Virus record (IMG/VR): IMGVR_UViG_2617270940_000004 | Span: 1 to 19,706 of that record | Origin: a virus | Taxonomy: Duplodnaviria; Heunggongvirae; Uroviricota; Caudoviricetes | Direction: 5' to 3' (one strand) | Length of the DNA stretch: 19,706 nucleotides | In this document: positions 17,666 through 18,477 of the stretch, one piece after another | How positions within the stretch are numbered: the first letter of the stretch is position 1 | Layout: every line of letters starts with the position of its first letter | Notes under the pieces: model-generated | Databases searched by the model: none | The model's input: only the letters and a program-made list of their open reading frames with translations | Told to the model about the DNA's origin: nothing | Translations under genes and position numbers: made by a program

Positions 17666-18005
17666 CGGCTGCAACTCGTTGACATTGGCGGTCACAAATT
17701 GAGGATTTCTATAAGAGTCCGTTGATCGCCACTTCCCCCACCTCTCCAACCTACCCCAGCCCAGGGGTGACAAGGCATTTAAGCCAATTACACCCATAAG
17801 AAAACAAATAAATAACACGTCAACGAAAAGTCAACGCTTTCCTCTGATTTGGTCTAAAAAGTTGACGTTTTCGCAAGCCATCTCTTATACCCAAAATCCT
17901 GCGCACCAGAATCCATCTCCCTGCGACCAAAACGTCAAAAACGACTCGTGATATCACTCAAAAACAGAAGCGCTCAGAAGCGCTCCCGTTGCGTTATATT
18001 GGGCA

Positions 18006-18023
18006 TCTAAACAAGTTGTTTTC
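18006..18023. promoter_or_regulatory. Family B palindromic site
   Basis: TCTAAACAAGTTGTTTTC; no intact gene follows before the IS2 insertion at 18387. Confidence 0.5.
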
Positions 18024-18049
18024 AGGCATAAGAAAACAAATTAACAACC

Positions 18050-18330
18050 CCCACAGGAAACCCAGAGACGCCATTACCCACAATCCCGGAAACACCCACC
18101 TCTTCCTGTCAGGCTACCGAAAAGACCCACCTCATTGCCCCAGGCTACAGACCACCCACCTAATATTCCCAGGCAACCGAGAACGCGGTTCGCACGCGCA
18201 AACCCCGATACGTCATTACCCAATACACGGAGAAGAACAGCCAGAACGAAACCCCGGACAAACCCAGACAAGAACAGGAGCCGTCACAATCTCGTTTACC
18301 CACCATTACCCCGAAAGAGAGCGCAAATTC
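18050..18330. repeat. C/A-rich repeat region with three tandem ~30 bp imperfect units and recurring CATTACCC words
   Basis: Units beginning ACCCACCT and containing CAGGCTAC/CAGGCAAC (about 18100-18195); CATTACCC-like words at ~18074, 18215, 18304; plus strand strongly G-poor. Confidence 0.4.
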
Positions 18331-18477
18331 CTGAATAGCAGGGAACGCCATTACTTCATATGCGGAGAACAACTAAAGCGCCCTACTAGACTGGCCCCCT
18401 GAATCTCCAGACAACCAATATCACTTAAATAAGTGATAGTCTTAATACTAGTTTTTAGACTAGTCATTGGAGAGCAG

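Follow-up and report, generated by a model that had tools for sequence, protein, structure and literature searches.

The locus and its interruption by IS2

The window, by which we mean the whole stretch of phage DNA analysed here (19,706 nucleotides), contains at positions 17666-18386 the left 720 bp, or first 45%, of a discrete non-coding module of ~1.6 kb. The module is carried by ~640-860 phage-plasmids of the SSU5/pHCM2/pKPHS1 type with 65-100% identity; at least 80% of it is covered, in the same identity range, in 644 plasmids. It accounts for about 1.5% of the backbone of these elements and is conserved to the same degree as the flanking genes, with blocks of 60-100 nt that are >90% conserved across lineages only 65% identical overall, while the upstream neighbours vary between lineages. 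In the 113.7-kb plasmid NZ_CP115313, the module lies at 88.8-90.5 kb. Its neighbours had no Pfam match and fell only into PHROG families of no known function. An Rfam scan of the window at gathering scores gave 0 matches; when the intact module was scanned by E-value, only two appeared, both at chance level (E >3). The region is left without annotation in many RefSeq records, and our search of the literature on SSU5 and pHCM2, and with conserved sequence strings, found no description of it. Homology with the Frpo/ssi elements of conjugative leading regions was rejected, because matches to the module were limited to phage-plasmids or fragments of them.

In the window, the module ends abruptly at IS2, the left end of which (TAGACTGGCCCCC) directly follows the stretch at 18387, as had been noted in a first-pass annotation of this DNA. 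Exactly at this position, the window parts from the intact homologue L002, in which the module spans 6067-7681, and from the near-identical contigs L094 and L097. To the right of it, the sequence has thousands of matches annotated as IS3-like element IS2 family transposase, and the IS2 left end is accompanied by IS3-family orfA and orfB (ORFs at 18433-18843 and 18801-19706). The first-pass annotation had suggested that IS2 may have separated the stretch from its cognate gene. This was not so; IS2 split the module itself, and uninterrupted relatives continue with ~900 bp more of non-coding module and then with small genes that have their own promoters. None of the complete E. coli genomes searched carries the exact IS2 junction, and a genome-collection scan with a neighbouring protein returned a single near-identical locus. 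A match in a 200-kb Klebsiella plasmid (L015) represents an IS2-truncated remnant of the module.

Table 1. Features of the interrupted module in the window.
Feature	Position	Strand	Basis or property
Block 1, 5' boundary of the module: CGTTGACATTGGCGGTCAC ... TTTCTATAAGAG ... CGTTGATCGCC	17677-17732	+	Nearly invariant in 34-35 lineages
Nearly G-free, C-rich, rut-like tract	17730-17763	+	Adjoins block 1
Block 2, best-conserved ~100 bp	17796-17892	+	Conservation 0.86-0.92
Tandem CAGAAGCGCT, two copies	17965-17984	+	Perfect in this lineage only
Operator-type palindrome AAACAAGTTGTTT	18006-18023	.	8 copies in the window versus 0.02 expected
First ~340 nt of A/C-rich, structure-poor domain	18050-18386	+	C/G 1.97
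Dispersed 27-bp units, GCCATTAC(Y)(Y)CA(W)A(Y)(R)CGGAGAA(S)AAC	18068-18096, 18210-18238, 18345-18373	+	Direct repeats
Three tandem 29-31-bp units, ACC(C/A)ACCTC-N8-CAGGCTACCG	18093-18183	+	Repeat analysis
IS2 (left inverted repeat, orfA/orfB transposase genes)	18387-19706, to window end	+	Homologue divergence, transposase annotations

The stretch is rich in repeats and lacks coding signal

Direct repeats are in large excess in the 720-bp stretch, with 27 pairs of 20-mers (≤4 mismatches); 200 dinucleotide shuffles had 0.41 such pairs on average and 9 at most. All of the sequence features that the first-pass annotation had listed were found to be present. The GTCAACG-type inverted arms lie at 17824-17836 and 17861-17873, with related inverted pairs labelled I1/I2; the 15-bp direct pair CATAAGAAAACAAAT (family D4) is at 17796-17810 and 18027-18041; the "family B" site proved to be the palindrome AAACAAGTTGTTT, at 18009-18021; and the three tandem units of ~30 bp and the G-poor block (120 C, 112 A, 61 G and 44 T over 18050-18386) are as described. 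The tandem pair of CAGAAGCGCT also exists, although ~3 nt to the left of the coordinates first assigned to it. Most homologues have CAGACACGCTCAGAAGCGCT in its place, and the tandem is probably incidental.

The claim that the stretch holds no convincing ORF was likewise borne out. An unusual or decayed coding region, such as the 137-aa Pro/Arg/His-rich frame at 17989-18402, would be in keeping with the long plus-strand open frames and with the hypothetical proteins annotated in some records (SSU5_108-110 and CYRAN_103/104). However, the long frames result from the G-poverty of the sequence, their frame and extent vary from homologue to homologue, start codons are often missing, and indels are not multiples of three. 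Site variability across the module alignment showed no codon phase, unlike a neighbouring real gene used as a control (0.16/0.11/0.44 over the three codon positions), and PGAP leaves the region blank in many RefSeq records. Comparison of uninterrupted homologues showed that the repeat families are conserved and that the locus is not a diverged coding region; we regard a coding function as extremely improbable.

The 5' control region carries operator-type sites

Block 1 is near-constant while the upstream genes differ among lineages. It contains an invariant inverted repeat (TGGCGGTCA at 17686-17694 and TGATCGCCA at 17723-17731); since all of its stem pairs are invariant, covariation is uninformative for or against a hairpin. 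Candidate sigma-54 and CRP sites in block 1, judged by eye, had the wrong spacing and were rejected. The 35 nt that follow block 1 contain 0-4 G residues (mean 2.0) in 33 lineages, and the sequence itself is variable.

In block 2, an operator half-site, AAGAAAACAA, is found at 17798-17807, together with a ATAAATAACAC stretch resembling the early promoters of the element, CGTTGAC-type motifs and a TTGACG-N17/18-TATACC arrangement; the inverted arms given above surround a conserved GATTTGGTCTAAAAA. That block 2 is similar to the standard promoter/operator modules is a by-eye judgement, and a search of the module lineages for a canonical sigma-70 promoter found none. Both points weigh against the RNA unit considered below.

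The palindrome AAACAAGTTGTTT occurs 18 times plasmid-wide as compared to 0.25 expected, including at a parA-like promoter. Compared with the early promoters nearby, the flanks of the site in the stretch are reversed. A second half-site AAGAAAACAA follows at 18030-18039, and the 18006-18023 operator forms an 18-nt inverted pair (I1) with an operator at the right end of the intact module. The KorB OB operators of IncP plasmids resemble this AAACAA-N-TTGTTT element in being a 13-bp palindrome dispersed at promoters, among them that of a partition gene. They differ from it in sequence, and its sites here follow closely on the -10 box.

An A/C-rich domain displays direct-repeat arrays on one strand

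The intact A/C-rich domain measures 871-947 nt, with C/G of 1.66-2.29 and A+C of 0.65-0.70 in 33 lineages. Its plus-strand RNA is predicted to fold with only -0.08 to -0.18 kcal/mol/nt, versus -0.25 to -0.34 for the flanking genes. At variable sites, we counted 61 A<->C changes against about 41 expected by our own calculation, an excess which, at the level of sequence comparison, indicates selection on strand composition.

Two repeat families occupy the part of the domain retained in the window. The 31-bp motif was found only in contigs that carry the module, in 2-4 copies across lineages and at conserved spacing. The 27-bp units (CATTAC-type, 27-29 bp) number 4-5 in the intact module, three being retained here and the rest lying beyond IS2; their copies hold a common consensus in every lineage, while their spacing differs between lineages (142/135/93 versus 135/113/90). 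GCCATTAC does not occur again elsewhere in the window. All repeat families of the module are direct and on the same strand. Repeats confined to one locus are equally expected of an origin or another DNA-binding platform, which counts against an RNA unit. A G-rich GGGAAA(A/C)GG array lies to the right of the domain, beyond IS2 in the window, and two GGGAAACGG-type arrays are found 3.5 kb apart; an RNA unit does not account for the right-hand G-rich array and its second copy 3.5 kb away.

By its sequence, the domain has the predicted properties of a Rho-dependent terminator (C>G, unstructured, untranslated, at least ~80 nt). An untranslated C-rich RNA is expected to be a strong Rho substrate and might not extend as far as the 3' hairpin described below, which also weighs against an RNA unit.

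Several known identities were tried for these repeats and rejected. One was a CsrA sponge. Protein-sponge RNAs such as CsrB and CsrC are non-coding and present a short single-stranded motif many times over, as proposed here, and AUACACGGA in the module matches 8 of the 9 positions of the CsrA SELEX consensus RUACARGGA. Unlike in CsrB/CsrC, however, GGA is not enriched (9 versus 7.3 expected; 75 of 300 shuffles reach 9) and is missing from two copies in one lineage, the motifs lie outside hairpin loops, and there is no Rfam match. For a GcvB sponge, no specific match of at least 8 nt to the G/U-rich R1 region was found, and duplex energies did not discriminate. ToxI-like repeats of type III toxin-antitoxin systems are tandem, ~36 nt long and immediately precede a ToxN/AbiQ-type toxin gene; the 31-nt repeats have no conserved ORF after them. 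Chi sites are enriched plasmid-wide and are not specific to the module, and a likeness to CRISPR I-E and I-F repeats, noticed by eye at the right end, which is poorly conserved, was put down to chance.

The domain ends in a plus-strand hairpin

We scanned the 35-lineage alignment on both strands with RNAalifold windows. Essentially no conserved RNA structure was found in it; within the A/C-rich domain, the plus-strand consensus energy was about 0 to -3 kcal/mol, and weak signals appeared at the 5' block and near the 3' edge. At this edge, which lies beyond IS2 in the window, a plus-strand hairpin (near position 7095 of L002) is followed by a T-rich tail. In the hairpin, 95.5% of cells are paired, versus 68-85% when the partners are slid; the slid registers still pair this well because the arms are a purine and a pyrimidine tract. 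Pair 18-39 changes from A-U to G-C in 6 sequences, which is one clear compensatory pair. G-U is the commonest pair at 4 of the 10 positions, and the helix would therefore be functional on the plus strand only. For seven lineages, energies of -9 to -17 kcal/mol were predicted, and the single-sequence z-scores are modest (+0.3 to -2.3). The hairpin was flagged as terminator-like in the Cyrano and pKPHS1 lineages; L002 was not flagged by the scanner, and in the SSU5/L002 lineage the tail is less T-rich. This, the pairing of the slid registers and the modest z-scores count against an RNA unit. The G-rich right half of the module folds no better than shuffled sequence (z = +1.15).

The plus strand is silent in lysogens of a homologue

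Strand-specific RNA-seq of Cyrano in LF82 lysogens gave log2(FPKM+5) values of 5.6-9.2 for the gene upstream of the module and of 2.3-4.3, or 0-14 FPKM, for an ORF call in its left half (PMC9928086, S1 Table; GEO GSE154648). Plus-strand RNA, at 59-587 FPKM in the upstream gene, thus drops to 0-14 FPKM once the module is entered, by a factor of up to about 260 by our calculation. A scan found no intrinsic terminator after the upstream gene. These data fit an efficient stop at the 5' end of the module and a repressed unit within it. They are also the sole expression data, and in them the plus strand is off, in lysogens, which is a point against an RNA unit.

Discussion

The module is non-coding and conserved, is constrained in composition and length, carries repeats found nowhere else, is silent on its plus strand in lysogens and bears a plus-strand-specific hairpin. 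The strand bias over ~900 nt and this hairpin lead away from a pure DNA array; together they suggest a single-strand function, probably that of an RNA. Our best, though tentative, reading is that the module is an untranslated, repressor-controlled transcription unit, of which the stretch would be the promoter-proximal 45%. For such a unit we infer a promoter, an RNA, expression in the lytic phase and a binding partner.

In the proposed unit, positions 17677-18040 (~370 bp) would constitute a control region made of diverged copies of the element's early promoter/operator module, with one full and two half copies of the AAACAA-N-TTGTTT operator. The G-free, C-rich tract at its start would halt transcripts that enter from the upstream gene. 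Upon infection or induction, release of the operator would let the control region drive a plus-strand RNA of about 0.7-0.9 kb. This RNA would be A/C-rich, G/U-poor and nearly devoid of secondary structure. It would display single-stranded motifs, namely three of the 31-nt units and four to five 27-nt GCCAUUAC...CGGAGAAGAAC units, in arrays that may bind a putative factor. Its 3' end would be formed by the plus-strand hairpin with its T-rich tail. In the window, IS2 would cut the unit ~380 nt past the operator; two copies of the motifs would be lost, along with the hairpin that resembles a terminator and the G-rich repeats after it. A more specific form of this idea, which we consider quite unlikely, is that the intact module acts in the lytic phase as a structure-free A/C-rich RNA of ~0.9 kb whose motif arrays make it a decoy, or a scaffold, for a host machine that binds single-stranded RNA, for example by titrating Rho, the preferred substrate of which it would mimic. 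If this were true, titration of Rho would favour read-through of phage operons and would be the RNA counterpart of Psu, the protein Rho inhibitor of P4.

A DNA-level platform for protein binding is the alternative that demands most attention, and a second, lytic-phase replication origin would be its most plausible form. The 31-bp, 27-bp and GGGAAA(A/C)GG repeats may then be iterons for a phage initiator, transcription under operator control might activate the origin, and the second GGGAAACGG array, 3.5 kb downstream, may correspond to crr of P4. The repeat families are kept between copies and lineages at this locus only; the 31-bp units are spaced at three helical turns and occur in 2-4 copies, as in iteron arrays, and the two GGGAAACGG-type arrays are in keeping with this arrangement. 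The element encodes a helicase, primase, DnaE, SSB, ligase and RNase H, and neither a lytic initiator nor a lytic origin has been assigned. Block 1 and the inverted repeats do not covary but are invariant, which is what sequence-specific recognition of DNA would lead one to expect, and the module is transcriptionally silent in lysogens. P4 ori/crr and P1 oriR/incA are similar in combining direct-repeat families with a distant second array. On the other hand, iteron origins have an adjacent initiator gene, an AT-rich unwinding element, fixed spacing and, usually, conserved DnaA boxes. Here no initiator gene adjoins the module, the neighbours all encode proteins of no known function, AT-rich stretches are short, with no long unwinding element, and the DnaA-box-like TTACCCACA (one mismatch, by eye) is not conserved in the alignment. 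Shifts of -8, -22 and -3 bp in the spacing of the 27-bp units between lineages abolish helical phasing, and the GC skew of the whole plasmid tracks gene orientation and gives no origin signal. A double-stranded DNA array would also leave the 900-nt strand bias, the A<->C excess and the G-U-dependent hairpin unexplained. We consider such a platform possible but rather doubtful. The first-pass annotation had proposed a protein-binding platform in general, and this part stands insofar as conserved repeat families restricted to the locus fit a trans-acting factor. The plasmid iterons and partition centromere that it offered as examples were not supported. Iterons of repA (1-1056 of NZ_CP115313) flank that gene, 24 kb away; their motif, TTTACTCACTACAGTGGATAG, occurs in at least 14 copies, is unrelated to the module repeats and is absent from the module on either strand, and k-mer comparison with the rest of the plasmid showed no link. 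The parA-like gene (45.3-46.0 kb of NZ_CP115313), 44 kb away, has its own palindrome, GTGTACGG...CCGTACAC, and no k-mer links of the module repeats to the repA or par loci were found beyond the shared operator. Direct-repeat arrays are typical of sites for maintenance of the plasmid-prophage, be they iteron arrays, incompatibility loci or partition centromeres, and the operator palindrome is shared with the parA-like promoter; however, the IS2 insertion inside the module fits, without proving, that the module is dispensable for maintenance, and such a role is very improbable.

The module could also be mainly a transcriptional insulator, a Rho-dependent stop zone between the upstream moron or early genes and the downstream early genes, in which the repeats and promoter-like blocks are decaying duplicates of promoter modules with no further role. 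The nearly G-free C-rich tract is present at the 5' end in all lineages, C/G is about 2 with weak folding over ~800 nt, RNA drops steeply in Cyrano despite the lack of an upstream intrinsic terminator, and blocks 2 and 3 are similar to the standard promoter/operator module. Like rut sites such as lambda tR1, the module is C-rich, G-poor, unstructured and untranslated, and RNA drops sharply at its 5' edge in a homologue. However, a rut site requires about 80 nt rather than 900; the module is ten times longer than needed, has conserved blocks and repeats, and ends in a terminator-like hairpin. Blocks conserved at >90%, a common repeat consensus and a length held at 871-947 nt would be unexpected for a decaying spacer, and insulation as the main role appears unlikely.

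The repressed transcription unit that we favour has parallels in the P4 leader with its CI RNA and in P1 ImmI with its c4 RNA. Like the proposed unit, these are non-coding regions in the early or immunity part of a temperate element, with a repressor-controlled promoter upstream, internal repeats and no ORF. They differ in that the P4 and P1 immunity RNAs are small and structured and act via complementary, inverted pairs, whereas the module repeats are all direct, the search for conserved structure and for complementarity within the molecule found neither, and the module is about 10 times longer. The module differs from iteron origins in its strong one-strand bias, and the RepA iterons of the plasmid itself are unrelated.

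Clinical E. coli, Klebsiella, Enterobacter and Salmonella commonly harbour phage-plasmids of the SSU5/pHCM2/pKPHS1 type, which carry resistance genes; the window itself encodes DfrA51. Whether it acts as a lytic-phase RNA or as a second origin, the module is probably a core control element of the lysis/plasmid life style, and it is a potential handle for typing, curing and engineering SSU5-type elements. The copy disrupted by IS2 is a natural mutant; if this element can still be induced or maintained, it would show which functions of the module are dispensable.

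The repeat-rich region is part of a longer module truncated by IS2

IS2 begins at position 18387. The sequence to its right carries IS2 transposase annotations, and the window diverges exactly there from L002, an intact homologue, and from two metagenomic contigs encoding an identical upstream protein. In uninterrupted relatives, the 720 bp are followed by ~900 bp of further unannotated sequence and then by small genes with their own promoters. Thus, the region at 17666-18386 represents the left 45% of a single ~1.6-kb module (L002 6067-7681). Truncation by IS2, as proposed in the first-pass annotation, was therefore borne out. 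Its further suggestion that IS2 had separated the region from a cognate gene was not, since the uninterrupted relatives continue within the module; IS2 cut inside it, and no gene was split off. The same IS2 junction was found in none of the complete E. coli genomes. At another locus, L015, an independent IS2 end truncates the module at a different position (~3262 of L015); this Klebsiella variicola plasmid (NZ_CP127499, 200 kb, multi-replicon) retains only the first ~760 bp, and four similar Klebsiella pneumoniae plasmids likewise keep only about the first 760 bp.

The source of the window is an E. coli phage-plasmid of the SSU5/pHCM2 type, whose backbone in annotated homologues runs from thymidylate synthase, DHFR, RNase H and methyltransferases through small early genes to terminase and head genes. 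Among complete E. coli genomes, 17666-18386 matched 29 places, all on plasmids and none chromosomal, and it also matched phage SSU5, Klebsiella phage-plasmids and 247 PLSDB plasmids. A distant blastn search placed the module in 859 plasmids (644 with at least 80% coverage) at 65-100% identity, in Klebsiella, Escherichia, Enterobacter, Salmonella, Citrobacter and Cronobacter; it was also present in 12 phage records. Its conservation was on par with that of neighbouring genes, and its start (CGTTGACATTGG) is fixed to the base, also next to different upstream genes. From viral contigs, 66 further module loci were taken, and the set was reduced to 35 lineages of <97% identity. Contig L086 (JAEWTL010000044.1), labelled a Bacillota MAG, codes for a protein with 100% identity to an early protein of an E. 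coli phage-plasmid and is probably mis-binned or contaminated.

Anatomy of the module and its non-coding character

All of the repeats listed in the first-pass annotation were present in 17666-18386, although the 10-bp tandem lies slightly away from where it had been placed. Repeat richness was beyond chance: 27 direct 20-mer pairs (≤4 mismatches) were found, whereas 200 dinucleotide shuffles averaged 0.41 such pairs and never exceeded 9. The operator-type "family B" site is a 13-bp palindrome, AAACAAGTTGTTT, present 8 times in the window versus 0.02 expected. As judged by eye, block 2 looks like the early promoter/operator module that is standard in the element (TGnGATAAT-AACACCAACAAGA-AAACAAnTTGTTT). 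The 31-bp and 27-bp motif families were found only in the module.

Features in and near the module (window coordinates unless a locus is named; L104 and L014 are other compared loci)
Feature	Position	Description
Block 1	17677-17732	Nearly invariant; inverted repeat TGGCGGTCA / TGATCGCCA
Nearly G-free C-rich tract	17730-17763	After block 1; conserved in composition, not sequence
Block 2	17796-17892	Best-conserved ~100 bp; operator half-site, CGTTGAC-type motifs in both orientations, inverted repeat around GATTTGGTCTAAAAA
10-bp tandem	17965-17984	
Full operator palindrome	18009-18021	Reversed orientation; second half-site adjoining
A/C-rich domain	from ~18050	Three 31-bp tandem units and 4-5 dispersed 27-bp units (GCCATTAC...CGGAGAAGAAC)
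Hairpin with T-rich tail	L002 7064-7100; L104 4968-4994; L014 2500-2527	Beyond IS2, in intact copies; purine tract/TCGC/pyrimidine tract; exactly at the C-rich to G-rich composition switch
G-rich stretch	3' of hairpin	Six GGGAAA(A/C)GG repeats
GGGAAA(A/C)GG-type arrays	L002 7160-7300; L002 10720-10830	Second array 3.5 kb downstream of the first; in window terms, both on the far side of IS2
Standard promoter/operator	Closing part of module	For next gene
(C/G)TATAAG(A/T)G	17710-17717 (+); 17883-17890 (-); L002 7050-7058 (+)	Module copies

The second GGGAAA(A/C)GG array lies directly 3' of the terminator of a 160-aa gene, and motifs of this type are rare elsewhere in the plasmid. Three of the four (C/G)TATAAG(A/T)G copies per whole plasmid fall within the module. 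In SSU5 (L001, ~7380-7800) and an Enterobacter locus (L006), an insertion of ~250-400 bp containing an 80-aa minus-strand ORF separates the G-rich array from the module's downstream promoter.

The earlier view that the region has no convincing ORF held up. Open frames vary from lineage to lineage in frame and extent, indels are not multiples of three, and site variability in the module has no codon phase; the neighbouring 103-aa gene, as a control, gave 0.16/0.11/0.44 over the three codon positions. In many RefSeq records, PGAP annotates nothing in the region. That the module is a coding remnant is scarcely credible.

One-strand composition and the 3' hairpin

Several features point to a function exerted on a single strand. 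The domain from block 1 to the hairpin spans 871-947 nt, with a C/G ratio of 1.66-2.29 and 65-70% A+C, in all 33 lineages measured, which share just 64-97% identity; C/G is <1 in flanking genes. At its variable sites, A<->C changes (61) were as common as the transition classes (57 and 62), as compared to 12-13 in adjacent non-coding parts and ~41 expected in the domain by our own calculation after allowing for composition. Composition itself is therefore apparently under selection. Plus-strand RNA was predicted to fold weakly (-0.08 to -0.18 kcal/mol per nt), the module's repeats are all direct, and no conserved RNA structure was detected in the A/C-rich domain on either strand; stems in the 5' block were uninformative because they are invariant. 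Neither the window nor the intact module matched Rfam.

At the 3' edge, hairpin pairing was retained in 95.5% of cells, versus 68-85% with the partners slid, and included one compensatory A-U/G-C pair. G-U was the commonest combination in 4 of 10 pairs, which restricts the hairpin to the plus strand. It was flagged as terminator-like in two lineages, those of Cyrano and pKPHS1.

The plus strand of the module is silent in lysogens

In Cyrano, the homologous phage-plasmid of E. coli LF82, the module occupies 94,275-95,814, with two ORFs called within it. In published strand-specific RNA-seq data (log2(FPKM+5), S1 Table, PMC9928086), CYRAN_102, which ends 5 bp 5' of the module, scored 5.6-9.2 (FPKM up to ~590), compared to 2.32-4.27 (FPKM 0-14) for CYRAN_103, called from block 2 through block 3 into the A/C-rich domain, and 2.6-4.7 (FPKM ~1-20) for CYRAN_104 in the right half. 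Thus, plus-strand transcription comes to a halt at the 5' boundary of the module, where no intrinsic terminator was found, and the plus strand inside is silent in lysogens. This silence counts against a sponge RNA of the lysogenic phase, and it is compatible with a repressed unit as well as with a DNA element.

Other features of the window and plasmid

AAACAA-N-TTGTTT occurs in the window at 9806, 10777, 11975, 15701, 16017, 16394, 16445 and 18009, and at 18 sites (0.25 expected) in NZ_CP115313, a near-identical plasmid of 113.7 kb. The sites lie just 3' of TGnGATAAT-type -10 boxes and 10-30 nt 5' of start codons, at genes that include early genes, a DnaB-like helicase, a parA-like ATPase and the small terminase. 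The palindrome looks like a global operator and is reminiscent of KorB OB sites. NZ_CP115313 also carries 29 Chi sites (GCTGGTGG; 15 + 14 per strand) across the whole element, versus ~3.5 expected by our estimate. Within the phage-plasmid backbone, adjoining thymidylate synthase, a 158-aa dihydrofolate reductase (3386-3862) scored 354.6 bits against the NCBI cut-off of 322 for the trimethoprim-resistance allele DfrA51. The RNase HI homologue at 8274-8939 is intact (221 aa, with an N-terminal extension); in the otherwise near-identical NZ_CP115313 it is annotated as frameshifted.

Possible functions of the module

Several known classes were considered. RepA iterons read TTTACTCACTACAGTGGATAG, number at least 14 and bear no sequence relation to the module, from which they lie 24 kb away, as does repA on the circle. 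The true plasmid origin region is at 1050-1700 of compared locus L017; there, after repA, the 21-bp iteron recurs in either orientation about every 40 bp, in at least 14 copies. The parA-like locus, 44 kb from the module, has its own palindrome. The first-pass interpretation as plasmid iterons or a partition centromere, third among the rival readings, is therefore very unlikely, and that annotation was confirmed in its observation and supported only partly in its interpretation. A CsrA sponge was rejected because GGA is not enriched and copies in one lineage have lost it, and a GcvB sponge because the complementarity test was non-specific. None of the neighbouring proteins has a known function.

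Our tentative first choice is a putative untranslated, operator-controlled transcription unit. It would be turned on outside lysogeny, and its RNA of ~0.7-0.9 kb, rich in A and C and free of structure, would display arrays of single-stranded motifs for a partner. Its weak points are that no match to a sigma-70 consensus promoter was found and that the lysogen RNA-seq data showed no such transcript; moreover, such an RNA should attract Rho, and the G-rich arrays are not accounted for. Somewhat doubtful, though foremost among the rivals, is a platform acting at the DNA level, most plausibly a lytic origin whose pair of arrays would resemble P4 ori/crr. The locus-specific repeats and invariant blocks would be accounted for in this way; however, strand bias and the G-U hairpin would not, and the module has no initiator gene, unwinding element or conserved spacing. 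A pure Rho-type insulator built of decayed promoter copies, which ranks next and appears unlikely, would explain the drop in RNA but would leave the constrained length of 900 nt and the highly conserved blocks unaccounted for.

No mention of the region or its conserved strings was found in the literature searched. The module is a real, conserved and hitherto undescribed non-coding unit of a clinically common phage-plasmid family.
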